Notes under the pieces: model-generated
Databases searched by the model: none
What the model was told of the DNA's origin: nothing
The model's input: only the letters and a program-made list of their open reading frames with translations
Made by a program: the position numbers and the translations under genes
Shown: positions 1,486 to 41,794 of the stretch, in pieces
Position numbering within the stretch: the first letter of the stretch is position 1
Layout of the letters: each line of letters opens with the position of its first letter
DNA from: Gammaproteobacteria bacterium
GTDB lineage: Bacteria > Pseudomonadota > Gammaproteobacteria > Methylococcales > UBA2780
Assembly: GCA_003646305.1 (NCBI GenBank)
Contig: QNFJ01000001.1
Location: forward strand, 1 to 41,794
Length of the DNA: 41,794 nucleotides
Direction: 5' to 3'

Positions 1486-2640
1486 GTGGATTTTTCTTTA
1501 ACCGAAGAGCAGTTGGCCATTCAGGAAAGCGCCAGACGTTTTGCTGAAGACAAGTTACTTCCCGAGTATCAGAATAATGACAAGAAGCATTGTTTTGATA
1601 AGGTGATGCTGAAAGAGATGGGTGAGCTGGGCTTGATCGGCAGCGAGCTTTCGGAGCGGTATGGTGGTTTAGGTCTAGGTTATGTGACAGCGGGTTTGAT
1701 CACCGAAGAGATTGCCCGAGCCGACTTTAATGTGGCCTATGTGCAGATCCTCGCTGGCCTGAACGGGGGGATTATTGAAAAGTTTGCGGCGCCTCATTTA
1801 GCGGAGGAGTGGATTCCAAAAATCATTAGCGGTGAGGCGCTTGTTGCGATCGCTTTGACGGAACCGAGTGCGGGATCTGATGCGGGAAATCTAAAACTGA
1901 AAGCCAAAAGGAAGGGGGATGTGTTCGTTCTTGATGGTGAGAAAACCTCGATTTCAGCTGCTGCTCAAGCGGATGTGGCGGTTGTTTTTGCTCGAACGGG
2001 TACACAGGAAGAAAAAGCGAGAGGGGTGAGTGCCTTTCTGGTGCCTTTAGATCATCCCAACATTACGCGTACTCATTTTGATGACCTTGGTGAGTCGATT
2101 GTTGGGCGCGGCTCAATCTTTTTCGATGGTGTCGAAGTACCGGCCGAGAATATGCTTGGAGAAGAGGGACTCGGTTTTATTCAGGTGATGCAGGGTTTTG
2201 ATTATAGCCGTGCCTTAATTGGTATTGAGTGTTTGGCGGCAGCGAAGAAATCGGTTGAAGAGGCCTGGGAACAGATTCGCCAACGTGAAGCATTTGGTAA
2301 AAAGATCTCAAAGTTTGAAGGTGCTAGCTTTCCTTTGGCCGAAGCGGAGACTTTTATCGAGGCGGCAAAACTGCTGTGTTACAAAACACTCTGGTTAAGA
2401 GATCAAGGTAAACCTCATACTGCCGAAGCGGCAATGTGCAAATGGTGGGCACCAAAAATTTCATTCGAGATTATTCATAATTGTTTGTTAGCGCATGGCC
2501 ACGGTGGCTACAGTAAAGAGTATCCGATCCAGCAGCGGCTACGTGATGTGCTTGGCTTGCAGATTGGTGATGGCACTTCACAAATCCAGAAGATTGTCAT
2601 TGCCAGAGAGAAAATTGGCCGTGATGGCGTTCCCTATTAA
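1486..2640 (+). CDS. acyl-CoA dehydrogenase family protein
   Basis: 384 aa with a GTG start downstream of TAGGAG. ACAD hallmarks are present (ALTEPSAGSDAG; C-terminal LGLQIGDGTSQIQKIVIAR). Asp sits where MCAD-type enzymes have the catalytic Glu (I-Y-E-G-T versus I-G-D-G-T). Confidence 0.9.
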   Translation: MDFSLTEEQLAIQESARRFAEDKLLPEYQNNDKKHCFDKVMLKEMGELGLIGSELSERYGGLGLGYVTAGLITEEIARADFNVAYVQILAGLNGGIIEKFAAPHLAEEWIPKIISGEALVAIALTEPSAGSDAGNLKLKAKRKGDVFVLDGEKTSISAAAQADVAVVFARTGTQEEKARGVSAFLVPLDHPNITRTHFDDLGESIVGRGSIFFDGVEVPAENMLGEEGLGFIQVMQGFDYSRALIGIECLAAAKKSVEEAWEQIRQREAFGKKISKFEGASFPLAEAETFIEAAKLLCYKTLWLRDQGKPHTAEAAMCKWWAPKISFEIIHNCLLAHGHGGYSKEYPIQQRLRDVLGLQIGDGTSQIQKIVIAREKIGRDGVPY

Positions 2641-2655
2641 AGAAGGTATCAGAGC

Positions 2656-3447
2656 ATGAGCGATAAAATTGTTATCTCATCGATAGAGGGAAATGTCGGT
2701 CTGATTATCATCAATCGAGCCGACAAATTTAATTGTCTTTCAATGGCCGTGCATCAGGCTTTGCAAGATGCACTACAGGCGCATGAAAGTAATTCGGAAG
2801 TGAGAGCGGTTTTACTTTGTTCGGAAGGTGATCACTTTTGTACCGGAGCAGATCTTGATGAGGTGCATGGCAAGATAGCGGCTAAAGACGATGCTGTGCT
2901 TAGAGAATTTATCGAACTGGGACATAAAACCTGTCGTGATTTTGAACAGACTAGTTTGCCAGTTGTTGGCGCTATTCAGGGGTTCTGTTTAGCGGGTGGG
3001 TTAGAGATATCACTCGGCTGTGATCTGTTGTTTGCTGCGGATGATGCGCTATTCGGTGATCAGCATGCCAACTATGGGTTGATACCTGGGTGGGGAGGAA
3101 GTCAAAGGCTTACTCGAATTATCGGTTTTCGTCGTGCGCTTGATCTGATGTTGTCAGGTCGCCGATTAAAAGCAAAAGAGGCTCAGGAATGGGGAATGGT
3201 TAATTATCTAGCACCTGCTGAATCGCTTAGGGAAGAGGCGCTTAAATATTGTCATCTGCTGGCATCAAAAAGTTCCGGCGGGCTTTCAATGATGAAAGCG
3301 CTCGCCTATCAAGGAAGTGATTTGAGCCTTGATGACGCTTTGCGACTGGAGGTCAACGAGGCGATTAAGGGGCTGCAAAGTGAAGATGTGGGAGAAGGGC
3401 TTGCTGCATTTGGAGAGCGCCGGGAACCTGTCTTCAGATCCCGATAA
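2656..3447 (+). CDS. crotonase-fold protein (enoyl-CoA hydratase/isomerase family) with atypical active site
   Basis: 263 aa. Crotonase motifs are present (FCTGADLDE, GFCLAGGLEISLGCD, GLIPGWGGSQRL). The first catalytic Glu is present (GGLEIS). The second aligns with His (FGDQHANYG versus FGQPEILLG of rat ECH). Confidence 0.85.
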   Translation: MSDKIVISSIEGNVGLIIINRADKFNCLSMAVHQALQDALQAHESNSEVRAVLLCSEGDHFCTGADLDEVHGKIAAKDDAVLREFIELGHKTCRDFEQTSLPVVGAIQGFCLAGGLEISLGCDLLFAADDALFGDQHANYGLIPGWGGSQRLTRIIGFRRALDLMLSGRRLKAKEAQEWGMVNYLAPAESLREEALKYCHLLASKSSGGLSMMKALAYQGSDLSLDDALRLEVNEAIKGLQSEDVGEGLAAFGERREPVFRSR

Positions 3448-3493
3448 ACAGATTTAAATAACGAATTAATATTTAGCCGAGAAGGGAAAAATA

Positions 3494-4276
3494 ATGAACT
3501 ACGAAGATATTACCTATGAAGTAAAAAATGGAGCAGCTTACGTCACCATTAACCGTCCAAAAGTATTTAATGCTTTTAGAGGGATTACCTGTGAAGAGCT
3601 AATTCATGCGCTGACTAAAGCCGCATGGGACAAAAGTGTTGGTGTGATTGTTCTGGCGGGAGCGGGTGATAAAGCATTCTGTACAGGTGGAGATCAAAGT
3701 GCACATGACGGTCAATATGACGGGCGAGGGATTGTTGGCCTGCCTGTTGAAGAGCTGCAAACAATTCTTCGTGATGCGCCTAAACCAGTTATTGCGATGG
3801 TACAAGGTTATGCCATTGGTGGGGGCAATGTGCTGGCGACGATCTGTGATATGACGATCGCCTCAGAAAGAGCCGTTTTTGGCCAGGTGGGCCCTAAAGT
3901 TGGCTCTGTTGATCCGGGTCATGGAACCGCTTATCTTGCCCGCGTGGTTGGGGAGAAAAAAGCACGTGAAATCTGGTACATGTGCCGTAAATATTCTGCA
4001 CAGGAAGCGCTTGAGATGGGGTTGGTTAACAAGGTTGTTCCACATGAAGAGCTTGCTGATGAAGTACAGAAGTGGTGTGATGAAATCATGGATAAAAGCC
4101 CAACAGCACTAGCGATTGCCAAGCGCTCTTTTAATGCCGATACAGAAAGTATCAGAGGAATTTCCGCGTTGGGTATGCAGACATTGCAGCTTTATTACAA
4201 TACAGAAGAGTCTCAGGAAGGGGTTAAGGCGTTTAATGAAAAGCGTAAACCTGATTTCCGCCAGCATGTTAAATAA
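3494..4276 (+). CDS. MenB/BadI-family crotonase, best read as a BadI-like 2-ketocyclohexanecarboxyl-CoA-type (beta-ketoacyl-CoA) hydrolase
   Basis: 260 aa. It carries FCTGGDQSAHDGQYDGRG (the short BadI-like version of the MenB GGDQ loop), GYAIGGGNVLATICD, GPKVGSVDPGHGTAYLARVVG and the C-terminal KAFNEKRKPDF. There are no menaquinone genes nearby, and it follows an ACAD and a crotonase. Confidence 0.72.
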   Translation: MNYEDITYEVKNGAAYVTINRPKVFNAFRGITCEELIHALTKAAWDKSVGVIVLAGAGDKAFCTGGDQSAHDGQYDGRGIVGLPVEELQTILRDAPKPVIAMVQGYAIGGGNVLATICDMTIASERAVFGQVGPKVGSVDPGHGTAYLARVVGEKKAREIWYMCRKYSAQEALEMGLVNKVVPHEELADEVQKWCDEIMDKSPTALAIAKRSFNADTESIRGISALGMQTLQLYYNTEESQEGVKAFNEKRKPDFRQHVK

Positions 4277-4296
4277 CGTTTAATCGAGATAAACCT

Positions 4297-4884
4297 ATGC
4301 CAGAATCAGGAATTTACGCCATCGATGGGGTTGTCCCAGTTATTCATCCGTCCGCCTTTGTTGACGAAAATGCCACGATTATTGGTGATGTCATTATCGG
4401 ACCAGACTGCTATATCGGTCCTAATGCTTGTCTGAGGGGTGATATGGCCACCATTGAAGTCGGAGCGGGTTCTAATATTCAGGATAACTGCACACTGCAT
4501 TGTATGCCCGGTTTGCCGACAATTATTGGAGAGTGGGGGCACCTTGGTCATGGTGCGGTGGTTCATAGTGCTCGGCTAGCAAAGAATGTCCTGGTTGGTA
4601 TGAATGCTGTTGTGATGGATCAGTCTTTTATCGGTGAGAATAGCGTTGTTGCTGCAATGGCGTTTGTAAAAGTCGGAATGCAAGTGCCAGAAAATACGCT
4701 GGTTGCAGGAACACCTGCACGTATCATTCGGCAGTTGACGGAACAGGAAATTGAAGGAAAACGAGACGGGACACGCTGTTATCACCAGTTAGTGAGCCGT
4801 TGTAAAGACTCTTTAAAGCGGGTCACGCCGCGGACTGAAAAAGAGGTGGGTCGCCCAGAGTTAAAAGTTAAACCGTTAGGATGA
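4297..4884 (+). CDS. gamma-carbonic-anhydrase-like hexapeptide-repeat protein (PaaY/CaiE/YrdA family)
   Basis: 195 aa. Left-handed beta-helix hexapeptide repeats are visible (IIGDVIIGPDCYIGPNACL...). The His triad spacing is retained (H68 in TLH, H85 and H90 in LGHGAVVH). Confidence 0.8.
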   Translation: MPESGIYAIDGVVPVIHPSAFVDENATIIGDVIIGPDCYIGPNACLRGDMATIEVGAGSNIQDNCTLHCMPGLPTIIGEWGHLGHGAVVHSARLAKNVLVGMNAVVMDQSFIGENSVVAAMAFVKVGMQVPENTLVAGTPARIIRQLTEQEIEGKRDGTRCYHQLVSRCKDSLKRVTPRTEKEVGRPELKVKPLG

Positions 4885-4942
4885 ATTTAAGTGAAGCGGT
4901 TGAAAGTATTGTTTTGTTTAAAATTTAGATTAAGAGGAAATC

Positions 4943-6139
4943 ATGGATTTAAATTACACTCCAGAAGAAAAAGCATTTCAATTAGAAGTGCGTAGCTTCT
5001 TAAAGGAAAGCTACCCGAAAGAGCTCCAGGATAAAGTTTCAAAAGGGATTGCGCTCAAAAAAGAGGATTATGTCCGTTGGCAGAAAATTCTTGCTAAGCA
5101 GGGTTGGGTTGCACCTGGCTGGCCGGAAAAATTTGGTGGCCCCGGCTGGAGTCCTGTTCAGAAATATATCTTTGATGAGGAGTGTGGTACTGCGAACTGC
5201 TTGAGGACGGTTGCTTTTGGTCTGGTGATGTTGGCGCCTGTCTTAATGGAATTTGGAACAGACGAGCAGCGTGAAAAGTATTTATCAGACATCTATAACA
5301 GTGATGTTTGGTGGTGCCAGGGTTATTCGGAACCCAACTCAGGTTCAGATTTGGCCTCTTTGCAGACGCGGGCAGAAAAGCAGGGTGACCACTATATCGT
5401 CAATGGCTCTAAAACATGGACAACCCATGGTCATTACGCCGATAAGATGTTTGCACTGGTTCGAACCAGCAAAGAAGATCGGAAACAAAAAGGGATCAGC
5501 TTCCTAATGCTCGATATGAAGGCGCCCGGTGTTACAGTCGACCCGATTATTACGGTTGACGGAATGCATGTGGTCAATCAGGTCTTTCTTGATAATGTAA
5601 AAGTACCGGTTGAAAACCTGGTCGGGGTAGAAGGGGAAGGCTGGACGATTGCAAAGTATTTGTTACAGCACGAACGAACTTATATTGCCCAGGTGCCACG
5701 TTCTAAAAAGCAGATTGAGCGCTTGAAGGTATTGGCAGGAAAAGAGCTGCACAATGGTAAATCGTTATTGGAAGATGATCGCTTTCGCGCAAAAATTGCT
5801 GAAATTGAGATTGAGTTATTGGCATTAGAAATGACCAGTTTGCGGATTCTATCCAAAATGTCAGCAGGGCAGCCTCCAGGGTCTGCCTCATCGCTACTTA
5901 AAGTCAAAGGAACAGAAGTACAGCAGGCGATTACGGCTCTACTAATGGAAGCGACAGGTTACTACGGTTTTCCTTACTTCAAAGAGGTCCTTAAAGAGGG
6001 CTGGAATGAAGAGGCAGTAGGGCCTGAAGAGGCAACCTTCCTCGCCCCACATTACTTCGACTGGCGTAAATCTTCTATTTACGGTGGCTCGAATGAAATT
6101 CAGAAAAATATTATGGCGAAAGCTGTATTGGGACTTTAA
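4943..6139 (+). CDS. acyl-CoA dehydrogenase family protein (putative catalytic subunit of a heteromeric pair)
   Basis: 398 aa with YSEPNSGSDLAS and the C-terminal SSIYGGSNEIQKNIMAKAVLGL. The MCAD-type Glu position is Gly, but an IVD/LCAD-type helix-G Glu is present (LLQHERT). Confidence 0.9.
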   Translation: MDLNYTPEEKAFQLEVRSFLKESYPKELQDKVSKGIALKKEDYVRWQKILAKQGWVAPGWPEKFGGPGWSPVQKYIFDEECGTANCLRTVAFGLVMLAPVLMEFGTDEQREKYLSDIYNSDVWWCQGYSEPNSGSDLASLQTRAEKQGDHYIVNGSKTWTTHGHYADKMFALVRTSKEDRKQKGISFLMLDMKAPGVTVDPIITVDGMHVVNQVFLDNVKVPVENLVGVEGEGWTIAKYLLQHERTYIAQVPRSKKQIERLKVLAGKELHNGKSLLEDDRFRAKIAEIEIELLALEMTSLRILSKMSAGQPPGSASSLLKVKGTEVQQAITALLMEATGYYGFPYFKEVLKEGWNEEAVGPEEATFLAPHYFDWRKSSIYGGSNEIQKNIMAKAVLGL

Positions 6140-6151
6140 GGGAGAACGGGA

Positions 6152-7282
6152 ATGAATCTTGAATTCACAGAAGAACAGGTTATGTTGCAGGATGCATTAA
6201 ACAAATACCTTGAAAAAGAATACAGCTTTGAGCAGCGGCAGAAGTTGAGCCGCAATGGCGTCGGTTATAGTGAAGAGAACTGGCAAAATTTTGCCGATAT
6301 GGGATTGTTGGGTGTTCCTTTTGATGAGCAATATGGCGGTTTTGGGTTTGGTGCAACAGGCCTGATCGTCGTCATGGAAGCGATTGGTAAAGGGCTGGTT
6401 GTTGAACCTTACCTTGCCTCTGTTGTTCTCGGTGGTCAGCTTATTCAACAAGCCGGTAGTGAGGTGCAAAAAGAGGCGTTGATTCCGCAATTGATTGCAG
6501 GTGAGTTGAAACTGGCTTTTGCTTATGTCGAGAGAAATTCTCGTTTTAACCTTGCGGATGTGGCCTTTAAAGCAGAAAAAGAGGGAGATGGTTTCCGTTT
6601 AAGCGGCAAAAAATCGGTGGTTTTCAATGCAGAGACAGCCGATAAAATTATCGTTTCAGCTCGAACAGCAGGAGATCAGACCAGTAAAGAAGGGATTTCT
6701 CTTTTTATTGTTGATAAAGGGGCAGTCGGTCTCTCTAGCAGAGACTATGAAACGGTTGATGGTTTGCGCGCATCTGAACTCGATTTTGATGGCGTGATTG
6801 TAGGGGCTGATGCATTAATTGGCTCATTAAATGAGGCCTATCCTGTTATTGAAAGTGTGATTGATTTTGCATCAGCCGCTATTTGTGCGGAGAGCGTTGG
6901 GGTGATCACGCAGCTTCGTGAGAAAACAGTTGAGTACCTGAAAACCAGAAAGCAGTTTGGTCAGCCTATTGGTGCTTTTCAGGTCCTACAGCACCGCACG
7001 GTTGATATGTTTATGGTAGAAGAGCAGATGCGTTCTTTAGCCTATTTAGCCGCAATTCGTGTGACTGATGGAACAGCGGAAGAGCGCCTCAAGAGTGTTT
7101 CTGCAGCCAAGGTCTATCTGGGTGATGCGCGCCCAATCGTCGGTGAACAATCTGCACAGTTACATGGTGGTATTGGGGTTACGGATGAACTGGATGTGGC
7201 CCATTACGTTAAGCGTTTAACGATGCTGAATGTGCTCTTTGGTGATCGCGATCACCATATGCAGCGCTTTTGCCAAAGCTGA
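6152..7282 (+). CDS. acyl-CoA dehydrogenase-like protein lacking a recognisable catalytic base (putative non-catalytic partner subunit)
   Basis: 376 aa, starting 12 nt after the preceding ACAD. The ACAD fold is recognisable throughout. The helix-G position reads VIDFASAAI (no Glu) and the C-terminal position reads LFGDRDHH (no Glu). Confidence 0.85.
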   Translation: MNLEFTEEQVMLQDALNKYLEKEYSFEQRQKLSRNGVGYSEENWQNFADMGLLGVPFDEQYGGFGFGATGLIVVMEAIGKGLVVEPYLASVVLGGQLIQQAGSEVQKEALIPQLIAGELKLAFAYVERNSRFNLADVAFKAEKEGDGFRLSGKKSVVFNAETADKIIVSARTAGDQTSKEGISLFIVDKGAVGLSSRDYETVDGLRASELDFDGVIVGADALIGSLNEAYPVIESVIDFASAAICAESVGVITQLREKTVEYLKTRKQFGQPIGAFQVLQHRTVDMFMVEEQMRSLAYLAAIRVTDGTAEERLKSVSAAKVYLGDARPIVGEQSAQLHGGIGVTDELDVAHYVKRLTMLNVLFGDRDHHMQRFCQS

Positions 7283-7294
7283 TCGGCTAAGCAG

Positions 7295-8317
7295 ATGTCT
7301 AAAACGGAAAAATTAAGTTATCCGTTTGCGGAAAAGCCATCATTTGGTGGTTTGCTCGAAGTTTCGGAAGGACTGTTCTGGCTGCGGGTACCTATTCCGT
7401 TTGCGCTTGACCACATCAATCTCTGGTTATTGCGTGATGGTGATGGTTGGACAATCATTGATACGGGCTTTTTTAGCGCAGAAGTCGCGACAATCTGGGA
7501 ACGGCTGCTAGAAGAATTTTGTGCAGGCGCACCGATTAAAAAAATTGTGGTGACGCACTTTCATCCCGACCACGTTGGTATGGCGAGCTGGTTGGTTGAG
7601 CGAACCGGAGCAGAGCTGTGGATGAGCGAGCGTGAATTCCTGACCGTTCATCGTGTATGTCAGCCCTATTCTGAACGTGAGATTACGGTGAGGGCTATCT
7701 TCTTCGAGCGTTTTGGGCTAAATGAAAAGCAGCTTGCCAGTGTCGTTAACGCGAGAAGTAGTGATGTTGAGGGGCTTCCGGAAGCCCCGGTCTCATACCG
7801 CCGATTGGTCGGTGGACAAACGTTATCGATAAATGGTGAGAACTGGAACTTGTTCAGTTTCGCAGGCCATAGTCCTGAGCATATTTGTCTGCACAATGCG
7901 GAGCGTAATTTGCTGATCTCGGGGGACCAGGTGTTGCCATCAATCTCTCCGAATATTAGTGTCACCTTTTACGAGCCACAGGCAAATCCGTTAGCGGAGT
8001 ATCTGAACAGTTTATCGAGGCTATCCGAGCTGAATGAAGAGACACTGGTGCTACCGTCACATGGTTCTGTATTCCAGGGTCTTCATCGGAGGATTGATCA
8101 GCTTGAGGCCGGACATCAAAAGCAGCTGGACAGGCTTTTGGAGTTTTGTAGGCAACCGCGTGATGGTAAAGAGGCGCTGGAAGCGATGTTTGGTAACCGC
8201 TTAAGTGCATTCAATTTGAGTCTGGGGGTTGGTGAGGCCCAGGCACACCTGAATTATTTAGTGGCCAAGCGTGAGCTAAAACAAAATGATGAGTTTATTC
8301 CACATTACCAGCGATAG
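7295..8317 (+). CDS. MBL-fold metallo-hydrolase
   Basis: 340 aa with the HxHxDH motif in VVTHFHPDHVG and downstream GHSPEH and PSHG. Confidence 0.85.
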   Translation: MSKTEKLSYPFAEKPSFGGLLEVSEGLFWLRVPIPFALDHINLWLLRDGDGWTIIDTGFFSAEVATIWERLLEEFCAGAPIKKIVVTHFHPDHVGMASWLVERTGAELWMSEREFLTVHRVCQPYSEREITVRAIFFERFGLNEKQLASVVNARSSDVEGLPEAPVSYRRLVGGQTLSINGENWNLFSFAGHSPEHICLHNAERNLLISGDQVLPSISPNISVTFYEPQANPLAEYLNSLSRLSELNEETLVLPSHGSVFQGLHRRIDQLEAGHQKQLDRLLEFCRQPRDGKEALEAMFGNRLSAFNLSLGVGEAQAHLNYLVAKRELKQNDEFIPHYQR

Positions 8318-27649: not shown

Positions 27650-27650
27650 C

Positions 27651-34928: not shown

Positions 34929-34932
34929 ATTC

Positions 34933-35387: not shown

Positions 35388-35397
35388 CAAACGTTTG
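35388..35397. promoter_or_regulatory. Perfect palindrome CAAACGTTTG within CTAACAAACGTTTG; candidate operator in divergent promoter region
   Basis: Read directly. It overlaps the candidate -35 box of the OYE promoter. It shares CTAACAAAyGTT with 1399-1410. Confidence 0.35.
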
Positions 35398-35423
35398 ACT
35401 CTCATTCAAATAGCCGTTATGTT
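35395..35423 (+). promoter_or_regulatory. Candidate sigma70 promoter TTGACT-N17-TATGTT for the OYE gene
   Basis: The hexamers and the 17-nt spacer were read directly. It lies about 48 nt upstream of the GTG at 35471. Confidence 0.4.
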
Positions 35424-35470
35424 TTTTACTTGAAAACAGTCTAATTCAATTTGAATGTTGAGGGTGCAGA

Positions 35471-36613
35471 GTGCAAATAAGCAAACCACTACTTTTCTCT
35501 TCATGGGAGATCGCTAAATTAAAGCTATCCAATCGGATCATGATTTCGCCAATGTGTATTTATCAGGCGGAAGCGGATGGGCTAGTATCGGATAAGCATC
35601 TGGTTCACTATGGGCAATACGCTTTGGGAGGCGCAGGACTAATCATAACGGAGGCAATTGCTGTAGAAGAAAGAGGAAGGATTAGTGGCTGGGATCTTGG
35701 GTTATGGGCTGATGAGCAAATCAAACCGCTCCGCAAGATAGTCACTTTCGCGCAGGAACAGGGTTCTAAAATTGGTATACAACTTGGCCATTCCGGGCTT
35801 AAAGGCTCGACGAGGCCGCCCTGGGAAGGGAATGGTTTTCTTGATGAAAGCGATGCGGAAAGAAATGCCAAACCATGGAAAACCGTAGGGCCGTGCGAAA
35901 ATTTATTGCCCCCAGATTGGCCTGCACCTAAAGTATTAACGACTCAGGAAATTGCAGAAGTGGTCGATGCGTGGGGTGATGCGGCGGCGCGAGCTGATGC
36001 TGCCGGATTCGACGTGCTGGAAATACATGGTGCGCACGGATATTTGATAAGCGAGTTTTTATCACCGCTGAGTAACACGCGTAAAGATGGCTATGGAGGC
36101 GAAGAGGGAAGAACACGATTGGCATGTGAAGTGGTTGAGTCGGTTCGGGCGAACTGGCCTGATGATAAACCGCTATTTTTCCGAATATCAGTGATTGATG
36201 GTGTTGATGTAGGTTGGTCGATTGATGATTCCATCAGCTTTTCAAAACAGCTTAAAAGAATGGGAGTTGATTTGATTGATTGCTCCAGCGGTGGCTTTAA
36301 AGTTGAGCGAGACAGAGCTATACCAAGGAAATTAGGCTTTCAAGTCTATCTGTCTGAAGCTGTTAAAGCTGGTGCAAATATCCCCACAGCGTCAGTTGGG
36401 TTGATCACTGAGCCTGACCAGGCGGAGACTATTTTGCAGAGTGGGCAGGCCGACTTGATTGCGATCGGCAGAACCGCGTTGAATAATCCTTACTGGCCAC
36501 GGCATGCGGCTCAGTATTTTAGTGTTGATGATAAGTTTGAGAATTGGCCGACTCAATATGGCTGGTGGCTTGAGCGCTGGGCCAAGACGTTGAATCGATG
36601 TGAAGACAGGTGA
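35471..36613 (+). CDS. NADH:flavin oxidoreductase, Old Yellow Enzyme family (YqjM/NamA-like)
   Basis: 380 aa with a GTG start. It has ISPMCIYQA, IGIQLGHSG, FDVLEIHGAHGYLISEFLSPLSNTRKDGYGG and DLIAIGRTALNNPYWP. Confidence 0.9.
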   Translation: MQISKPLLFSSWEIAKLKLSNRIMISPMCIYQAEADGLVSDKHLVHYGQYALGGAGLIITEAIAVEERGRISGWDLGLWADEQIKPLRKIVTFAQEQGSKIGIQLGHSGLKGSTRPPWEGNGFLDESDAERNAKPWKTVGPCENLLPPDWPAPKVLTTQEIAEVVDAWGDAAARADAAGFDVLEIHGAHGYLISEFLSPLSNTRKDGYGGEEGRTRLACEVVESVRANWPDDKPLFFRISVIDGVDVGWSIDDSISFSKQLKRMGVDLIDCSSGGFKVERDRAIPRKLGFQVYLSEAVKAGANIPTASVGLITEPDQAETILQSGQADLIAIGRTALNNPYWPRHAAQYFSVDDKFENWPTQYGWWLERWAKTLNRCEDR

Positions 36614-36650: not shown

Positions 36651-37112
36651 ATGGAGCAAGAATGTATTCAGGAAAAAATGCGACCAAACTGTTGTTTTGG
36701 GTGTGGACTCGATAATCCCCATGGGTTGCAAATTAATAGCTACTGGAACGGTGATGAGGTTGTTTGTATCTGGAGTCCTAAGGATTACATGACAGGTCCC
36801 CCTGATTATCTATATGGTGGCACCTCTGCTAGTTTAATCGATTGCCATTCCGTCAATGCCGCGATTGCTTATGCTAATAGAATGGAGGGGAATGAGGATA
36901 AATACGATCAAAATATCCGCATGGTCACGGGGACAATGACCGTAAAATATTTAAAACCGGTTCCCATGAAGCCAGTCAAATTAACAGCAACGATTGAAAA
37001 AGTGGAAGGCCGAAAATATACCGTTAAAAGCACACTGCAAAGCGACAATGTGGTTTGTGTAGAGGGTAAGGTGGTTGCTATTCTTTTGAAGGTTGAAAAA
37101 GGTGAGTTGTAA
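36651..37112 (+). CDS. PaaI/4HBT-type hotdog-fold thioesterase
   Basis: 153 aa. The N-terminal CFGCGLDNPHGLQI is typical of this thioesterase group, and the size fits a hotdog fold. Confidence 0.72.
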   Translation: MEQECIQEKMRPNCCFGCGLDNPHGLQINSYWNGDEVVCIWSPKDYMTGPPDYLYGGTSASLIDCHSVNAAIAYANRMEGNEDKYDQNIRMVTGTMTVKYLKPVPMKPVKLTATIEKVEGRKYTVKSTLQSDNVVCVEGKVVAILLKVEKGEL

Positions 37113-37204: not shown

Positions 37205-39130
37205 ATGTTGGGGACTGTTTATCGGAATAAAGATTATCAGGGCCGGATTGAGAGAGCCCGAGAGCAATTTCATTGTGGTTTTGAAGTAAACGAAGAAATG
37301 CTTTCCCCGCTTGTGCTCGAGTCATGGCAGCGATCCAGGCAATTTAACGTCAGTAGTAATTTGAGTCGAGCTCCCGAAATTGAGGGAAATGGCTTGACTA
37401 ATACGGAACAGGATTCGTACTTGGCGCTACGAAAAGCCGCACTACCCGTTATCAAGGATGCACGAAGGATTCTTGATGATAATCAGCTGCTTATGCTGCT
37501 AACTTCTGCTGAGGGGAAGATTATTGAGCGTGAGGGGAATCTGCGGTCGTTAAAAATAGCTGATTCACAGCAACTCATTATCGGTAGCAGCTGGACGGAA
37601 AGCAGTTGTGGTACAAATGCAGTGGGAATGGCTATTTCCCTGCAGCAGCCAGCACAGATTGTTGCCCATGAGCATTATTGTGAAATGGTGAAAGTCTGGG
37701 GTTGTGCGGCTGTACCGATCAAAGACTTGAGAGATGGACGTATGCTGGGCGTACTGGATACGACCGGTCCTGCGCATTCATTCGGCTCGATGAACCTTGG
37801 CTGGGTCAACTCAATGGCCTCATGCATTGCATTTCGATTGAATGAAGAGCGCAATTTATCAAAATATCGCTTGCTTGAGCACTGTATGGGGCAAGCTCGC
37901 AGGCTCTCCCAAGCTAACGTACAACTTTTTGATGAAGACGGTTTCCTGGTCTGGATGAGTGATTGGTTATTAACTAAGCAGTGTGACGTGACTCTTCTAG
38001 GGCATAATCAGATTGGCATGAGGTGGGATGAGATGGCTGTGAGTAGGCAACCACTAAAGAATCCCCCGCGAGATATTCAGGCAGATTGCTTGGAGCCCGT
38101 GGTCATTGGAGGCAGAATAGCTGGCCATTTGTTATTTATTCCGGTAAAAGTTGAAAAAAAAGTTACGAAAATAGCTGTAATAGAGGCTAGACAAAGCAGC
38201 TTGATTATTGGGGAAAGCGCTGTAACGGAGGGATTAAAAAATCTTGCGAAACGCTTTGCCTGTGTAGATGCGATTTGCACGCTTACCGGTGAAACAGGTA
38301 CGGGCAAAGAGGTTATGGCCAGAGAAATGCACGCTCTGGGAAATAGAGAGGGTGCATTTATTGCGGTGAACTGTGGCGCGATGCAAAAAGAGCTGCTTGC
38401 GAGTGAGTTGTTTGGTTATGCGGAAGGTAGTTTTACCGGTGCCAAGCGAGGTGGAATGATTGGGAAGTTTGAGGCGGCTAACGGGGGGACTCTGCTGCTT
38501 GATGAGTTTTGCGAACTCCCTCTTGAATTACAGGTTTATCTGCTTAGAGTTCTTGAAGAGCATGAAGTCGTTCGGATTGGGGAATCAAAGCCTCGTAAGA
38601 TTAATGTACGAATTATCGTCGCAACCAATAAAAACCTTGAAGAAGAGGTTGAAGCTAAGCGCCTGAGGGAAGATTTGTACTACAGAATCAATGCAAATAT
38701 GATTGAGCTGCCCCCGTTACGGGAGCACAAAGAAGATATTATGGTTTTGTTCGATCATTTCCTAGGTCGAGTTTCAAGTGAGAGTTGTGGGATAGCACCT
38801 CAATTAACCCCCTCTTTTATAAAAGCGTTGAAAGCGCACAGTTGGCCGGGCAACATAAGAGAACTCCGCAATTTTGCCGAAAATTGTTTTCTGATGAATC
38901 CAGGTGAGACGTTAACGGTAGAGCATCTTCCCAATAGAATGCTGGCATCCGTTTCTCGTAGCTCCGGTCAAGAGGAAAGTGCGTGTGGTTGTACGCTTAA
39001 AGAAGTTGAGCGGCAGGCGCTTGTGGAAGCATTGAGTCTTTTTGATGGGAATATTTCGAAGGCTGCACGGCACCTTGGTATTGCGAGAAGTACGTTCTAT
39101 AAGAAAATGGATGCATTAGAAAAGGATTGA
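37205..39130 (+). CDS. sigma54-dependent transcriptional activator, AcoR/AcxR-like
   Basis: 641 aa. The N-terminal sensory region has the AcoR-type LESWQRSRQF motif. The AAA+ domain has Walker A GETGTGKE, GSFTGA (GAFTGA motif) and LLLDEF. The C-terminal Fis-type HTH is NISKAARHLGIARSTFYKKM. Confidence 0.92.
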   Translation: MLGTVYRNKDYQGRIERAREQFHCGFEVNEEMLSPLVLESWQRSRQFNVSSNLSRAPEIEGNGLTNTEQDSYLALRKAALPVIKDARRILDDNQLLMLLTSAEGKIIEREGNLRSLKIADSQQLIIGSSWTESSCGTNAVGMAISLQQPAQIVAHEHYCEMVKVWGCAAVPIKDLRDGRMLGVLDTTGPAHSFGSMNLGWVNSMASCIAFRLNEERNLSKYRLLEHCMGQARRLSQANVQLFDEDGFLVWMSDWLLTKQCDVTLLGHNQIGMRWDEMAVSRQPLKNPPRDIQADCLEPVVIGGRIAGHLLFIPVKVEKKVTKIAVIEARQSSLIIGESAVTEGLKNLAKRFACVDAICTLTGETGTGKEVMAREMHALGNREGAFIAVNCGAMQKELLASELFGYAEGSFTGAKRGGMIGKFEAANGGTLLLDEFCELPLELQVYLLRVLEEHEVVRIGESKPRKINVRIIVATNKNLEEEVEAKRLREDLYYRINANMIELPPLREHKEDIMVLFDHFLGRVSSESCGIAPQLTPSFIKALKAHSWPGNIRELRNFAENCFLMNPGETLTVEHLPNRMLASVSRSSGQEESACGCTLKEVERQALVEALSLFDGNISKAARHLGIARSTFYKKMDALEKD

Positions 39131-39383: not shown

Positions 39384-39399
39384 TGGCATAAAGAATGCA
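39384..39399 (+). promoter_or_regulatory. sigma54 (-24/-12) promoter TGGCATaaagaaTGCA
   Basis: The GG and GC dinucleotides have canonical 12-nt register against TGGCACG-N4-TTGCW. It is about 60 nt upstream of the ATG at 39460 and immediately downstream of a sigma54 activator gene. Confidence 0.6.
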
Positions 39400-39459: not shown

Positions 39460-39730
39460 ATGGTAGCAGCAACAAAAGAGGTGCAGGGAAATAAGCCTGT
39501 TGAGGTTGAAAAAACGGTAGCCTATAAAATCAGTCAGCGAGATGAGTTAACCGAAAAAACGGGACACTACTGGGGAATTAAAGAATTCACGCTTAAAGAC
39601 AGTATCTGACCCAGTGAAGTTTGAGCGTTTTTATTCACGCCTGCAATCAGCCTGTATGGCGGCCAGAGAGATTTCTCGATTTGTTGCAGCTAGTCTGGGT
39701 GGTCGAGAAATGGGTGAGGCTGTGTGGGGG
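39460..39730 (+). pseudogene. 5' remnant of a second hydantoinase-B/acetone-carboxylase-alpha-like gene (frameshifted, then truncated)
   Basis: A good RBS (GGAGGG) precedes the ATG at 39460. MVAATKEVQGNKPVEVEKTVAYKISQRDELTEKTGHYWGIKEFTLKDSI ends in a stop at 39607-39609. The +1 frame continues DPVKFERFYSRLQSACMAAREISRFVAASLGGREMGEAVWG. Both parts parallel residues of the intact gene at 40653 (LEYKLQQRDELYKKTGHYWGVKELKLKEQDPIKYERFFSRIQSAVFAAREKARFVAASPGGREMGESLW). Homology stops at about 39730. Confidence 0.7.
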
Positions 39731-39732
39731 TT

Positions 39733-40579
39733 GGCAAGAAAGTACATGAAGCTGGGGGGAAGATTGCACCTCAGATCTGGCATACAGGGATGATGAGAGA
39801 GAAAGGAATGGAGCCTGATCCAGAAGAGATTGCTGTTGGGCCAAGCGATATATATAAGGATGTAGAGCTGGTGGCGCGTGGTCTTGGCCTGGATGAAATT
39901 GCAGAGATCGTGCTTGCTTATGCGCAAGCAGCGAAAGATGCAAAATCACTCGGTTTTGATGCGGTAGAAATCCACGGTGCACATCAATATTTAATCGATC
40001 AGTTTTTCTGGGAAGAAACCAATAAACGAACAGATGAATATGGGGGGGTAATAGAAAACCGTATTCGCTTTGGGAAAGAGGTTGTTGCTGCAGTACGGGC
40101 GGTAGTTGGCCCAGAATTTCCTGTTATTTTTCGTTTTTCGCAATGGAAACTACTGGATTACACAGCAAAAATTGCCAACTCTCCTGAGGAGTTAGGGAAA
40201 ATCCTTATTCCTTTGAGTGAAGCAAGGTGTGGACATTTTTCACGCCAGTACAAGGCGTTTTTGGGAGCCAGAATTTGAAGGATCTGATTTAAATTTGGCT
40301 GGTTGGGCGAAAAAACTGACCGGTAAACCTTCCATTACGCTAGGAAGCGTTGGGCTGGATAAGGAATTTAAGCTTGACCACTTTATAGGGACAGAAAATC
40401 CTGATGCAGGCACGACTGATATCAATGAACTGTGTAGCCGATTAAACAAAGGTGAATTTGATTTGGTGGCGCTTGGCCGGGCGATAATGGGCGATCACCA
40501 GTGGGTTAACAAAGTTAAGGCAGGCGATTTTGCGAGCATCAAACCCTTTGATAAGCACGCAATGGATACCCTCACTTGA
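39733..40579 (+). pseudogene. Old Yellow Enzyme-family flavin oxidoreductase remnant: roughly 80 N-terminal codons missing (estimated against the intact OYE at 35471) and one frameshift (about nt 40225)
   Basis: Track ORFs 39724..40278 and 40217..40579 together read KKVHEAGGKIAPQIWHTG...FDAVEIHGAHQYLIDQFFWEETNKRTDEYGG...LSEA/GVDIFHASTRRFWEPEF...DLVALGRAIMGDHQWVNK. There is no N-terminal FMN-binding segment. Removing the single extra A in GCAAGG restores the frame. Confidence 0.75.
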
Positions 40580-40652
40580 TGCCCTTTTTGTTAAAGAAAT
40601 GGTAAAACGGTAAGATCGAGAGAAAGTAATACTGACTTCCTGAGGAGGAAAA

Positions 40653-41794
40653 ATGACATCTGTAATGAAAGAAGGGCTGGGACTTCCAGTTGAAAAGACG
40701 TTGGAATACAAGCTGCAGCAACGTGACGAGTTGTATAAAAAAACAGGGCACTACTGGGGAGTAAAAGAGCTTAAGTTAAAAGAGCAGGATCCAATTAAAT
40801 ATGAACGCTTTTTTTCACGAATTCAGTCCGCCGTTTTTGCTGCGCGTGAAAAAGCTCGGTTTGTTGCGGCAAGTCCGGGTGGACGAGAAATGGGTGAATC
40901 ACTCTGGGCACTAACAACTGCTGAAGGGGACACGATCGCCATGTCGTTGGGCTTTATTTCTCATTGTGCCTCTTTTCCTGTCTCGATCAAACACATGATT
41001 GATAACCAGTTTGAAACTAATCCGGGCATTAACGACGGTGATGTATTTAGTGCTGATGATCCGCTGACATCCGGTGCGCCACATCCGGGAGATACATACA
41101 CGCTGGTTCCTATTTCTGTGGGTGGAGAAGTTATTGCGTGGTCATGTTCGGTTAATCATATCATGGACGCAGGCGCCCCTCAGGCGGGCAGCTGGCCAGT
41201 TTTTACGGTTGATACATTTATGGATGGGTTTGTCTTTCCGCCAATGAAAACAGGCGAAAACTTACGGGCGGCAAAATGGTGGGACAACCTGTGGATGAGG
41301 CGTACCCGTGCGGGAGCGATGAATGTTCTAGATGACAGAATGAGGCTTGCGGGCTGTTCAATGATTCATGGTTCTATACATGAAATTATTGAGGAATTCG
41401 GGGTCGAATACTACCAACAGGCATGCAAGGAGATTATTGAAGAGAGTCGACGGATGATCCTAAATAACATGCGTTCTACGTTGGTCCCTGGGCGATATGA
41501 TGGAAGCTGTTTCAGAATCTCCATGCTAAAAGGGCAGCAAAAAATTTGGGAGCATGCGGATAAAAATGAGCTGATTCACGTGCGTGGTGTATTCAGTGTT
41601 GATGAAGAGGGCCGAGTTGTATGGGATACAGAAGGCTCTTCACGGTGGGGCTATCATGGTTTTAATGGTTACCCTGGTGGTTCTGATGTGGCACTGTATC
41701 TTTGTATGACCACGACATTCGCCCATAGCTGTAAAGCTAGTGCTGGCGTCAATATGAACGTTGAGAGCATCTACCATGAAGGGAGCATTTATAA
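40653..41794 (+). CDS. hydantoinase B/oxoprolinase family protein, acetone/acetophenone-carboxylase alpha-subunit-like (5' part; continues past window end)
   Basis: Absent from the ORF track because no stop lies in the window. GAGGAGG is 5 nt upstream of the ATG at 40653. It reads MTSVMKEGLGLPVEKTLEYKLQQRDELYKKTGHYWGVKELKLKEQDPIKYERFFSRIQ...NPGINDGDVFSADDPLTSGAPHPGDTYTLVPI...HIMDAGAPQAGSWP... and stays open to 41794. Confidence 0.88.
   Translation, partial: MTSVMKEGLGLPVEKTLEYKLQQRDELYKKTGHYWGVKELKLKEQDPIKYERFFSRIQSAVFAAREKARFVAASPGGREMGESLWALTTAEGDTIAMSLGFISHCASFPVSIKHMIDNQFETNPGINDGDVFSADDPLTSGAPHPGDTYTLVPISVGGEVIAWSCSVNHIMDAGAPQAGSWPVFTVDTFMDGFVFPPMKTGENLRAAKWWDNLWMRRTRAGAMNVLDDRMRLAGCSMIHGSIHEIIEEFGVEYYQQACKEIIEESRRMILNNMRSTLVPGRYDGSCFRISMLKGQQKIWEHADKNELIHVRGVFSVDEEGRVVWDTEGSSRWGYHGFNGYPGGSDVALYLCMTTTFAHSCKASAGVNMNVESIYHEGSIY

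Follow-up and report, generated by a model that had tools for sequence, protein, structure and literature searches.

The stretch of DNA analysed here (the window) comprises 41,794 nucleotides, positions 1 to 41,794 of contig QNFJ01000001.1 in the gammaproteobacterial assembly GCA_003646305.1 (Methylococcales, UBA2780), and carries an island of coenzyme A (CoA)-dependent acid metabolism genes that include two pairs of thiolase-fold and DUF35 proteins and two carboxylation systems. Pfam was run on every non-overlapping open reading frame (ORF) of at least 100 amino acids, on the truncated gene at each end, and on ten shadow ORFs in antisense; family-level calls were made by judging NCBIfam models against their own cut-offs, and matches in PDB were obtained with phmmer. 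The Pfam inventory comprises six acyl-CoA dehydrogenase-family (ACAD) genes (starting at positions 1486, 4943, 6152, 25317, 26471, and 29316), three crotonases (2656, 3494, and 21108), four MaoC-type hotdog genes, of which those at 8384 (FAS1_DH), 8791, and 27651 match Pfam and the one at 21897 does not, an additional 4HBT hotdog at 36651, two intact family III CoA-transferases (30486 and 32583) plus one chimeric ORF (28127), two adenylate-forming ligases (9249 and 22507), and the two thiolase-fold/DUF35 pairs (14237 with 15415, and 33777 with 34933). It also includes an old yellow enzyme (OYE) at 35471, an NMO-family protein at 20104, a membrane-fusion protein and a resistance-nodulation-division (RND) pump at 15962 and 17008, a carboxyltransferase at 10652 and a biotin carboxylase at 12259, a sigma54-dependent activator at 37205, and a Hydantoinase_B gene that starts at 40653 and is still open where the window stops. 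The acyl-CoA gene counts agree with those of a first-pass annotation made from the sequence alone, with ORF 21897 placed among the hotdogs by weak similarity, and the AcoR/AcxR-like activator, OYE, NMO-family enzyme, and RND pump that it had named were all found by Pfam. Unless stated otherwise, the genes described below lie on the plus strand.

Both thiolase-fold genes are abutted by DUF35 ORFs with zf-ChsH2 and OB_ChsH2_C domains. Thl1 (14237-15418; Pfam Thiolase_C_1), a Cys-less thiolase-fold protein of the Sal/SLP type, is paired with DUF35_1 (15415-15855). Thl2 (minus strand, 33777 to ~34928, where the true start of this 383-aa protein lies; Pfam and PRK06158, the latter at 666 bits against a cut-off of 421), which is Cys-less as well and has a YDAF motif, is paired with DUF35_2 (34933-35331, minus strand, its domains taken from the gene calls). 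Each of these families is conserved at ~70% identity across Alpha-, Beta-, and Gammaproteobacteria. The nucleophile position was read from alignments with 6esq, an archaeal thiolase, and with Ltp2 (6ok1): the A-A-C-A-S-G stretch of 6esq corresponds to V-S-G-A-T-A-G in the query, with Gly in place of Cys. This residue, Gly89 in Thl1 and Gly84 in Thl2, is invariant in 120 of 120 homologues of each protein, which bears out the earlier statement that the locus encodes no thiolase with a nucleophilic Cys. In CtSal, a proven bile-acid aldolase, Gly at the nucleophile position precludes thiolysis, and the Y302-D-C304-Y motif supplies the catalytic base and acid; the motif is thus YDCY in CtSal, and it is YDCF in TbSLP (PMC12329534). 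The corresponding Y288-D-C-F motif of Thl1 is invariant in 120/120 homologues, and the combination of the invariant Gly with the exact CtSal Tyr/Cys motif argues for an aldolase and against a thiolase. The acid of the aldolases is Cys304 in CtSal and Tyr344 in Ltp2; the YDCF of Thl1 offers both Tyr and Cys, the YDAF of Thl2 only the Tyr. Among the Thl2 homologues, YDAF is invariant, and Cys327, located two residues before an invariant His, is kept in 117 of 120 and may substitute for the Cys of the Sal dyad. Judged by its aligned motifs, Thl2 is a third active-site variant that follows neither the Sal (YDCY) nor the Ltp2 (YDHF plus Tyr344) pattern.

Pfam detected neither adh_short nor 3HCDH_N nor any further Rossmann dehydrogenase domain in the ORFs of the 41.8-kb window, whose intergenic gaps of at most 330 bp leave no room for an unseen gene, and the same check of the window ORFs revealed no Cys-containing thiolase, the two DUF35-paired proteins being the sole members of the thiolase superfamily. 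The claim that the locus lacks a 3-hydroxyacyl-CoA dehydrogenase therefore holds inside the window but not for the contig, where a short-chain dehydrogenase/reductase (SDR) gene is located 6 kb upstream of the window, nor for a close relative of the island (locus L091), which carries two. The best match of the upstream SDR is a 2,4-dienoyl-CoA-reductase-type model (208 bits, under the 318 cut-off); it is 44% identical to an SDR in a Variibacter locus, and both resemble 2,4-dienoyl-CoA-reductase-type SDRs. Locus L091 is 97% identical to the contig of the window over the OYE-carboxylase stretch and 88% over the ligase-CaiB stretch, and its island continues as CaiB-ACAD-SDR (251 aa)-ACAD-ACAD-ECH-SDR (302 aa)-ligase-ECH, where ECH denotes an enoyl-CoA hydratase (crotonase). 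The 302-aa SDR is 64% identical to an SDR from a Burkholderiales locus, where its gene immediately follows that of the Thl2 orthologue. From these gene contents, the system as a whole clearly comprises SDR-type dehydrogenases, and the apparent lack of a dehydrogenase is mostly an effect of the window edges. None of the flanks showed a canonical Cys-thiolase.

Such flanking SDRs would suit an ordinary modified beta-oxidation of bulky acyl-CoAs, in which the thiolase-fold/DUF35 pairs act as atypical BbsAB-like thiolases. Homology to BbsB and BbsA is indeed detectable (134-136 bits in PDB 7pxp, with matches to the NCBIfam BbsA and BbsB models), and the arrays around Thl2 orthologues (ACAD pair-DUF35-Thl2-SDR-MaoC-ECH) resemble a complete (R)-specific set. 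The gene order in the Burkholderiales locus is PimD-like-PimC-like-DUF35-Thl2-SDR-MaoC-ECH-ACAD-CaiB, the Thl2-SDR-MaoC trio is also present in Futiania, and in other Proteobacteria (L093 and L094, 10001-12109) Thl2 is always followed by a 306-aa FabG/MFE-2-like SDR. However, Gly invariantly replaces Cys in both families, a substitution that blocks thiolysis in CtSal (PMC12329534), Thl1 keeps the aldolase Tyr/Cys dyad motif, and the BbsB scores are far below those to Ltp2 and 9myr (179-217 bits) and to the uncharacterized 4u4e (288-396 bits), so that we rate this explanation as unlikely.

The conservation of the island was assessed by a scan for Thl1 in one genome per GTDB species, which returned 80 loci onto which all window proteins were mapped; neighbours were counted in 7 Cycloclasticus loci and 57 other proteobacterial loci. 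Among the genes preceding Thl1 are two adjacent PimC/PimD-like ACAD genes (4943-6139 and 6152-7282; pimC_large 454.6 bits and pimD_small 413.3 bits, both under cut-off), which among solved structures match best the alpha2beta2 side-chain ACADs of steroid degradation, 4x28 and 6wy8/6wy9, and whose products probably form an alpha2beta2 heterotetramer. This pair is kept in all 7 Cycloclasticus loci, as is the metallo-beta-lactamase-fold hydrolase gene (7295-8317; Pfam Lactamase_B) that separates it from a pair of hotdog genes (8384-8806 and 8791-9237; Pfam FAS1_DH_region and MaoC_dehydratas, NCBIfam HadA and HadB, PDB PhaJ and HadB). The first hotdog lacks the catalytic motif and is HadA/ChsH1-like, and the second is a MaoC (R)-hydratase with a GDTNPLH motif in its translation. 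The heteromeric ACAD, heteromeric MaoC, and Cys-less aldolase/DUF35 genes reproduce the architecture of the igr (ChsE1-E2, ChsH1-H2, Ltp2-DUF35) and Scd/Shy/Sal systems (PMC12329534, PMC11321319), including the Gly at the nucleophile position, the Tyr-Asp-Cys of CtSal in Thl1, and a cycle that needs neither a dehydrogenase nor a thiolase. Sequence similarity to those systems is moderate, however, and unlike in them, the DUF35 proteins of the window are free-standing and not fused to a hydratase, steroid ring genes are absent, and the set is coupled to a methylcrotonyl-CoA carboxylase (MCC)-type enzyme and to AliB and BadI.

Between the hotdog pair and Thl1 are encoded a CoA ligase and that carboxylase. 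The ligase (9249-10652; Pfam AMP-binding and AMP-binding_C_2) belongs to the PaaK family (aryl/cycloalkyl-acetate type), with PaaK model scores of 255 and 236 bits that are far under the cut-offs of 700 and 646. The biotin-dependent acyl-CoA carboxylase consists of a carboxyltransferase beta subunit (10652-12262) and an alpha subunit with biotin carboxylase and biotin carboxyl carrier domains (12259-14247), as identified with Pfam and PDB. The beta subunit scores 617 bits to Mycobacterium tuberculosis AccD1 (4q0g), 597 bits to the MCC beta subunit of Pseudomonas aeruginosa (3u9r), and 425 bits to the beta subunit of geranyl-CoA carboxylase (GCC; 5ikl), and its alignment to P. aeruginosa MCC beta has one single-residue gap near residue 50 and is otherwise gap-free. 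On these overall scores and the near-gapless alignment, the enzyme is classed as MCC-type, not geranyl-CoA-type; of the two carboxylation systems that the first-pass annotation had described, both are present, but the biotin-dependent one is not the GCC version that it had allowed for. The GCC beta signature is Gly162 in place of MCC Phe191, with a larger pocket and a chain three residues shorter there (PMC4673880). In the leucine and acyclic-terpene pathways (liu/atu), a branch is removed via carboxylation by MCC or GCC, hydration by a methylglutaconyl-type hydratase, and retro-aldol cleavage by HMG-CoA lyase (PMC4673880), and the window resembles these clusters in having an MCC/GCC-clade biotin carboxylase beside ACAD and hydratase genes. 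It differs from them in encoding a Sal-type aldolase/DUF35 pair in place of an HMGL-family lyase, in lacking AtuA, AtuB, and AtuG, and in its MCC-like beta subunit; unlike in liu, the ACAD by the carboxylase is not an isovaleryl-CoA dehydrogenase equivalog. Neither the window nor the annotated 21-kb Variibacter locus encodes an HMGL-family lyase. Membership in the GCC/atu group was rejected on the scores above and on the lack of HMGL, AtuA, AtuB, and AtuG domains in the window.

The left block of the island combines an AliB-type ACAD of the cyclohexanecarboxyl-CoA dehydrogenase family (1486-2640; three Pfam ACAD domains and the equivalog TIGR03207 at 583 bits against a cut-off of 575.35), a crotonase in the position of BadK (2656-3447; Pfam ECH_1, 1.4e-49, with only generic NCBIfam matches, all under cut-off), and a BadI-type 2-ketocyclohexanecarboxyl-CoA hydrolase for retro-Claisen ring opening (3494-4276; equivalog TIGR03210 at 475.7 bits against 467.6, with lower scores for the MenB models). 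The predicted C-C cleaving enzymes are accordingly those named earlier, the BadI-type hydrolase and the two Cys-less thiolase-fold/DUF35 pairs. A PaaY/CaiE-like hexapeptide-repeat protein, a putative thioesterase (4297-4884; Pfam Hexapep; TIGR02287 at 251.9 bits, under the 319.6 cut-off), is encoded next, before the PimCD-like pair. The paa pathway was considered and rejected, the PaaK and PaaY models being under their cut-offs and no oxygenase or PaaZ being encoded in the window.

In the bad-ali/aab supraoperon of Aromatoleum sp. CIB, aabA, encoding pimelyl-CoA dehydrogenase, follows badI, with a PaaY-like ORF nearby (PMC9795900). The block shares with the bad/ali and aab/pim clusters of Rhodopseudomonas palustris and Aromatoleum sp. 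CIB (PMC9795900) the AliB and BadI equivalogs, the crotonase in the BadK position, a pimeloyl-CoA-dehydrogenase-like ACAD after badI (here with the PaaY-like gene between them), and an oxygen-independent, CoA-dependent mode of ring opening. In contrast to these clusters, the window has no BadH, no BadR, no adjacent AliA-type ligase, and no AabBCD hydratase, dehydrogenase, and thiolase, its gene order is different, and the ACAD placed after BadI is split over two PimCD-like genes that remain under the cut-offs. For BadH, there is no adh_short domain in the window and no BadH model among the 25 best matches of the nearest SDR, 6 kb upstream; for AliA, model TIGR03208 is not among the matches of the PaaK-like and FadD-like ligases of the window. 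The first-pass annotation had seen no match to described clusters, a view that the AliB score, the bad/ali- and aab-type left block (PMC9795900), and the igr/Sal arrangement of the ACAD pair, MaoC pair, and aldolase contradict.

The same arrangement, and the identity of the nearest structures (the steroid enzymes 4x28, 6wy8, 6ok1, and 9myr), could mark a cluster for steroid or bile-acid side chains and rings of the igr or Scd-Shy-Sal type, and the ligases do match the CasG and FadD3 models below threshold. The steroid models nevertheless all stay well under their cut-offs (IpdE2 103 vs 450 bits, CasG 302 vs 750, FadD3 300 vs 657), no KstD, Ksh, Hsa, or Ipd ring genes are found in the window or its flanks, and AliB and BadI point to monocyclic substrates. 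Cycloclasticus, the genus to which the island is traced below, is known for degrading polycyclic aromatic hydrocarbons, which we also count against this possibility. A steroid-like substrate, one of the classes suggested at first, is thus highly improbable.

In Cycloclasticus chromosomes, the island has the core order [PrpD-AliB-ECH-BadI-PaaY]-PimCD-metallo-beta-lactamase-hotdog pair-PaaK-like ligase-carboxyltransferase-biotin carboxylase-Thl1-DUF35 / ACAD6-FMNred-CaiB2-Thl2-DUF35 / 4HBT. These chromosomal loci are devoid of the RND, NMO, ECH3, FadD, solute-binding protein, ACAD4/5, MaoC2, chimeric CaiB, CaiB1, TfoX, and sigma54 activator genes, and one genome (L016) lacks AliB, BadI, PaaY, the ligase, and the carboxylase. 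Thl1/DUF35 is found within 10 kb of an MCC-type carboxylase in 7/7 Cycloclasticus loci and in 37 of the 57 other proteobacterial loci. Outside Cycloclasticus, Thl1 orthologues are 66-74% identical and come from Bradyrhizobium, Afipia, Xanthobacteraceae, and many Burkholderiales, with a recurring array of FadH-like OYE-AliB-like ACAD-ACS-like ligase-ECH-ligase-Thl1-DUF35-ACAD-carboxyltransferase (58-67%)-biotin carboxylase-[BadI-like, 48%]-ECH3. In these 57 loci, an AliB-like ACAD (54-59% identity) is located near Thl1 in 28, as is ECH3 (at least 50% identity; also 28), and a BadI-like gene accompanies Thl1 and the carboxylase in a minority of the distant proteobacterial loci. That AliB-like and BadI-like genes travel with Thl1 suggests a branch on or next to a ring.

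Were only the lyase of an atu/liu pathway swapped, with the alicyclic genes as mere neighbours, the MCC-type carboxylase, ACADs, crotonases, and ligases, together with the lack of an HMGL gene and the presence of a pyrroloquinoline quinone (PQQ)-dependent alcohol dehydrogenase upstream, would all be accounted for; a PQQ alcohol dehydrogenase contributes to the use of citronellol and geraniol in Pseudomonas. Against such a variant, homologues of AtuA, AtuB, and AtuG are missing and the carboxylase is not of the GCC type, and the joint travel of AliB-like and, in a minority, BadI-like genes with Thl1 and the carboxylase in distant Proteobacteria indicates that the alicyclic genes belong to the module. 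We regard this variant as quite unlikely.

The right end of the window carries a ketone-carboxylase unit. It is preceded by an OYE ene-reductase (35471-36613; Pfam; NamA model at 340 bits, under the 431 cut-off), a 4HBT thioesterase (36651-37112; Pfam), and a sigma54-dependent activator of the AcoR/AcxR/MimR type with GAF, AAA+, and Fis-type helix-turn-helix domains (37205-39130; Pfam, with MimR_N in the gene call). Pattern search placed a candidate -24/-12 sigma54 promoter, TGGCAT-N5-ATGCA, at 39384-39399, 60 bp upstream of the start codon of the truncated HydB'; as the pattern has 23 matches over the window against 27 expected, this site is supported by position only. Translations and Pfam reveal a recombination scar (39460-40579) composed of a 5' remnant of an alpha-subunit gene (39460 to ~39720) and a frameshifted OYE gene (39724-40579). 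The remnant comprises the first ~85 codons of a paralogous ketone-carboxylase alpha gene, with 70% DNA identity to 40689-40897, and the OYE pseudogene lacks ~90-92 N-terminal codons and covers positions 87-237 of the Pfam Oxidored_FMN profile. The scar junction at 39739 matches nucleotide 277 of the OYE gene that is still whole in L091; there, a complete first carboxylase set precedes this gene and two carboxylase sets are arranged in tandem. Compared with L091, the window appears to have lost the first set through a multi-kilobase deletion about as large as a single set, and the activator and the -24/-12-like site now appear to drive the second one.

The divergent acetone-carboxylase-like alpha subunit of this second set (Hydantoinase_B, 40653-41794; Pfam) is cut by the window end; on the same contig (L001), the alpha gene runs to its end and is followed by genes for an Acetone_carb_G gamma and a Hydantoinase_A beta subunit, then by an ACS/acetoacetate-CoA-ligase-like gene and a further CaiB. 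The full alpha protein scores 334 bits over 709 residues to the Xanthobacter Acx alpha subunit (5svb) and 121 bits to acetophenone carboxylase. Like the AcxABC/AcxR system of Xanthobacter autotrophicus (5svb, 5m45), the unit has HydB alpha, HydA beta, and Acetone_carb_G gamma subunits, a GAF-sigma54 activator upstream, and a beta-ketoacid-type ligase downstream; it differs in being distant (~0.47 bit per residue), in its alpha-gamma-beta order, in the OYE that always comes before it in relatives, and in its tandem duplication in L091. The OYE precedes the carboxylase operon in every relative examined (L092, 2132-11953; L019, 18224-20592; L091, 3404-11956), and an ACS/acetoacetate-CoA-ligase-like gene follows it in those loci that extend far enough (L091, L092, and L001). 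This conserved order suggests a route from an enone via a ketone and a beta-keto acid to a beta-ketoacyl-CoA. A 202-bp copy (93% identical) of the OYE 3' end is found between the carboxylase beta and ACS-like ligase genes (L091 9677-9878, with the matching stretch of L001 at ~18540-18740; compare window 40379-40580) and is a trace of a tandem duplication of the OYE-alpha-gamma-beta unit.

The first-pass annotation had combined all of this into a single pathway, and a dedicated, dehydrogenase- and thiolase-free route for a keto-bearing methyl-branched or cyclic substrate (e.g., an isoprenoid or monoterpenoid ketone), with both carboxylases acting in sequence, would explain why the 41.8 kb hold both carboxylation systems and no SDR, 3-hydroxyacyl-CoA dehydrogenase, or Cys-thiolase. 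The carboxylase alpha gene directly follows the island in L019, the island of L091 continues past the carboxylase with acyl-CoA genes, and the predicted product of a retro-aldol reaction, a ketone, would belong to the substrate class of the acetone carboxylase family. On the other side, SDRs flank the window (one upstream on the contig and two downstream in L091, one of them 64% identical to the SDR partner of Thl2), and the window has at least four transcription units plus pseudogenes. The acetone-carboxylase-like operon, although it follows the island in L019, is absent from most chromosomal versions, and in L092, another Cycloclasticus chromosome, it is unlinked, located among isocitrate dehydrogenase and sox genes. 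Modules are gained and lost independently among Cycloclasticus genomes; together with the recombination scars, this shows a mosaic that grew by accretion and comprises at least four transcription units, not a single pathway operon, and a dedicated pathway of this kind seems an unlikely account of the locus.

The favoured reading, which we hold to be somewhat better than even, sees in the window a composite island of catabolic genes from a gammaproteobacterium of the Cycloclasticus type, assembled from separable CoA-dependent modules for acids with a tertiary beta-carbon, whether alicyclic or methyl-branched (naphthenic-acid-like or terpenoid), with the ketone-carboxylase unit as a separately mobile element juxtaposed here. 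Alkyl-substituted alicyclic or terpenoid acids fit best as substrates. The nearest relatives of four tested proteins are indeed from Cycloclasticus metagenome-assembled genomes (MAGs; 81-96% identity). From the observed gene families, active-site substitutions, synteny, and modularity, we infer the following reactions, their order, and this substrate class. Ligases or CaiB transferases would activate the acids. In the first module (1486-7282), the AliB-type ACAD would desaturate a cyclohexanecarboxyl-CoA-like ester, the crotonase would hydrate it, BadI would open the 2-keto ring to a pimeloyl-CoA-like diacid ester, and the PimCD-like ACAD would continue from there. In the second (4943-15855), which shares the PimCD-like pair with the first, desaturation by the ACAD and hydration by MaoC would yield a beta-hydroxy, often tertiary, acyl-CoA, which Thl1-DUF35 would cleave by a retro-aldol reaction to acetyl- or propionyl-CoA and a ketone or aldehyde, with no need for a 3-hydroxyacyl-CoA dehydrogenase or thiolase. 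The MCC-type carboxylase would carboxylate the gamma-methyl group of a 3-methyl-2-enoyl-CoA, and after hydration the aldolase would probably take the role that 3-hydroxy-3-methylglutaryl (HMG)-CoA lyase plays in liu/atu. By analogy to those pathways, the carboxylase, hydratase, and Thl1-DUF35 would thus remove a beta-methyl branch, with a Sal-type aldolase replacing HMG-CoA lyase. The third module (minus strand, 25317-35331) would comprise activation by CaiB, ACADs, a MaoC hydratase, and the second aldolase-like pair, and the fourth (35471 to beyond the window) a sigma54-controlled ketone carboxylase, the OYE, and a beta-ketoacid-type ligase that would convert ketones or enones into beta-ketoacyl-CoAs.

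A substrate whose beta-carbon is blocked or part of a ring had already been proposed in the first-pass annotation. The logic is sound, as it is for igr/ChsE-ChsH-Ltp2, Scd-Shy-Sal, and thn (PMC12329534, PMC12016498), but it is already the accepted explanation for such an enzyme architecture. In thn, which acts on the second ring in anaerobic naphthalene degradation, the CoA-transferase ThnP, the ACAD ThnO, and the hydratase ThnL generate a tertiary beta-hydroxyl on the cyclohexane ring, the lyase ThnQS cleaves this intermediate, which is not oxidised, and the pathway ends at pimeloyl-CoA (PMC12016498, PMC11659651); both thn and lrc, the latter acting on limonene, are established cases in which alicyclic CoA esters pass through a tertiary alcohol to a lyase (PMC12016498, PMC12583861). 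The window shares with thn (PMC12016498, PMC11659651) the family III CoA-transferase, ACAD, and hydratase genes. It differs in that the thn lyase is AtuA-like and its host a strictly anaerobic deltaproteobacterium, whereas the window encodes thiolase-fold and DUF35 proteins and no aryl-CoA reductases.

Several points weigh against the modular interpretation. AliB and BadI exceed their cut-offs by ~8 bits only, and the PimCD-, PaaK-, and PaaY-like genes are all below the family cut-offs. BadH, which is essential in canonical bad/ali (PMC9795900), is missing, so the source of a 2-keto substrate for BadI is unexplained. The MCC-type carboxylase could be a plain leucine/isovalerate enzyme. Finally, as Thl2 lacks the Cys of the Sal dyad and elsewhere adjoins an MFE-2/FabG-type SDR and MaoC, an atypical thiolytic or retro-Claisen role would also fit.

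The missing BadH would be explained if the modules cooperated in an oxygen-independent, dehydrogenase-free route for naphthenic acids of the cycloalkyl-acetate type that includes re-carboxylation of a ketone, an idea that we consider a long shot. A 1-hydroxycycloalkyl-acetyl-CoA would then arise through the PaaK-like ligase together with the alpha/beta ACAD and the MaoC pair, and Thl1-DUF35 would split it into acetyl-CoA and a cyclic ketone, an activity listed as EC 4.1.3.35. The OYE-linked divergent carboxylase would turn the cyclic ketone into a 2-oxocycloalkane-carboxylate, the ACS-like ligase or a CaiB would form the CoA ester, and BadI would open the ring to pimeloyl-CoA. A (1-hydroxycyclohexan-1-yl)acetyl-CoA lyase with this EC number was reportedly described by Ougham and Trudgill in 1982 in Arthrobacter CA1 growing on cyclohexylacetate; the route in that strain is said to lead from cycloalkylacetyl-CoA via an ylidene and a tertiary alcohol to a cyclic ketone and acetyl-CoA, with an oxygenase acting next. 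To our knowledge, no gene has been assigned to this activity. The predicted chemistry is alike, and a PaaK-family ligase is encoded inside the second module; unlike in Arthrobacter, no oxygenase is encoded here. In a more modest variant, the MCC-type carboxylase and Thl1-DUF35 may constitute a widespread, HMG-CoA-lyase-independent way of removing the beta-methyl group from 2-methyl-cycloalk-1-ene-1-carboxyl-CoA-type esters, in which the retro-aldol step would hand BadI its 2-keto substrate directly.

Block by block, the locus resembles, by gene content, the described bad/ali-aab, igr/Sal, liu, and acx clusters. New on the same comparison are the way in which an MCC-type carboxylase is combined with a Sal-type aldolase/DUF35 pair and with AliB/BadI-like genes, an association conserved across Proteobacteria, and the distant clade of OYE-linked ketone carboxylases; a literature search found no paper describing this gene combination. 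Among petroleum-derived acids, those whose beta-carbon is tertiary or quaternary (naphthenic, terpenoid, and hydroaromatic acids among them) make up the recalcitrant fraction, for which almost no genes are known beyond bad/ali (PMC10710301). For these acids, the island supplies candidate genes in Cycloclasticus, a key marine hydrocarbon degrader, namely, two Thl/DUF35 families, an MCC-type carboxylase that accompanies one of them and appears to dispense with HMG-CoA lyase, and a ketone-carboxylase clade. Should their functions be demonstrated, the aldolase solution would extend beyond steroid side chains, and orphan activities such as EC 4.1.3.35 could gain genes.

Many of the genes that distinguish the window from the chromosomal versions are located between the two Thl pairs. 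DUF35_1 is followed by genes for a membrane-fusion protein and an RND efflux pump (15962-20049; Pfam HlyD_3 and ACR_tran), found in 0/7 Cycloclasticus loci, a flavin mononucleotide-dependent NMO/FabK-family enzyme, a putative enoyl reductase (20104-21078; Pfam NMO, 1.9e-55; FabK model at 237.8 bits, under the 453 cut-off), and the crotonase ECH3 (21108-21869; Pfam ECH_1), whose orthologues in Bradyrhizobium/Afipia-type loci share 54-60% identity with it and come after the MCC-type carboxylase. The next ORF (21897-22373) is a degenerate MaoC-like hotdog in which the catalytic Asp and His are replaced (GGLHEPLF). It has no Pfam or NCBIfam match and shows weak similarity to MaoC2 at 27651 (24% identity, BLASTP E 3e-7) and to the MaoC-like PDB entry 1q6w (E 1.2e-3); a counterpart is encoded directly after DUF35_1 in locus L012. 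A single-sequence AlphaFold model of this ORF had a predicted local distance difference test score of 42 and was not used. The block ends with a FadD-type acyl-CoA ligase (22507-24066; Pfam AMP-binding and AMP-binding_C; PRK06187 at 530.8 bits against a cut-off of 476) and a periplasmic solute-binding protein (24297-25157; Pfam SBP_bac_3).

On the minus strand, downstream of DUF35_2 and Thl2, are the genes, all assigned with Pfam, for CaiB2 (32583-33776), an FMN_red flavoprotein (32093-32557), a TfoX_N protein (31736-32086), CaiB1 (30486-31739), and ACAD6 (29316-30482). The best NCBIfam match of CaiB2 is succinate-glutarate CoA-transferase (355 bits, under the 750 cut-off). ACAD6-FMNred-CaiB2, unlike CaiB1 and TfoX, is conserved in 5/7 of the Cycloclasticus loci; the presence of a competence-regulator-type TfoX_N domain gene inside an acyl-CoA operon is a peculiarity that the chromosomal Cycloclasticus versions do not share. 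Farther on are a chimeric ORF of 390 aa (28127-29299, minus strand), MaoC2, a MaoC hydratase (27651-28112, minus strand; Pfam), and two ACADs (26471-27649 and 25317-26471, minus strand; Pfam), a group (25317-29299) that is absent from chromosomal Cycloclasticus loci. In the chimeric ORF, Pfam detects the N-terminal part of AcetylCoA_hydro and the last third of CoA_transf_3: the N-terminal ~160 residues weakly match acetyl-CoA hydrolase/transferase, and the C-terminal ~110 residues correspond to the final part of a family III CoA-transferase. Identical in all assemblies, this ORF is probably a recombination scar or pseudogene within the operon. Four of the six ACADs of the window lack an acidic residue at the C-terminal base position of medium-chain acyl-CoA dehydrogenase; a Glu in an E-G-x-G-type stretch is present in all six (A-Y in PimD) and may match the alternative base of isovaleryl-CoA dehydrogenase.

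The same locus with identical proteins is found on 61-kb and 129-kb ENA contigs, in JGI 3300013101 and 3300013103, in a Logan assembly, and in MAG GCA_003646285.1. On the 129-kb contig (ERZ27227323 k141_1524249; locus L005, 1-8380), trfA, parA, and parB are located 7-10 kb upstream of the island, which suggests a plasmid or an integrated element; in PLSDB, megablast gave no match for window positions 1400-25000, and the trfA/parAB region had only weak ParA matches. Upstream of the window are the dienoyl-CoA-reductase-like SDR, a truncated CaiB gene, a TetR regulator, and the PQQ/cytochrome c alcohol dehydrogenase (TIGR03075, 622 bits), the last of which hints at a free alcohol as the upstream substrate. 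The window itself starts with an MmgE/PrpD-family gene (3-1325, minus strand; Pfam MmgE_PrpD_N and MmgE_PrpD_C), the C-terminus of which is cut by the window start. Its homologues adjoin the island with 78% identity in the Cycloclasticus locus L016 and 47-48% in Hydrogenophaga and Ottowia loci, so that the association of this gene with the island is conserved in Cycloclasticus and some Burkholderiales loci.

Rfam and tRNA scans of the window found nothing, and the counts from a sigma70 promoter/terminator scan of positions 15500-35499 were at or below the shuffled expectation. The convergent gap between the solute-binding protein gene and the last ACAD gene of the minus-strand operon contains a long inverted repeat (25193-25295) with 44-nt arms that are 82% complementary and a 15-nt loop, which could be a bidirectional terminator or an element resembling repetitive extragenic palindromes or miniature inverted-repeat transposable elements. 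GC skew is strongly positive (0.14-0.23) over the plus-strand block (1-25000) and near zero over the minus-strand block (26000-35000), and around the convergent junction, at about 24-26 kb, GC content drops to 0.42.

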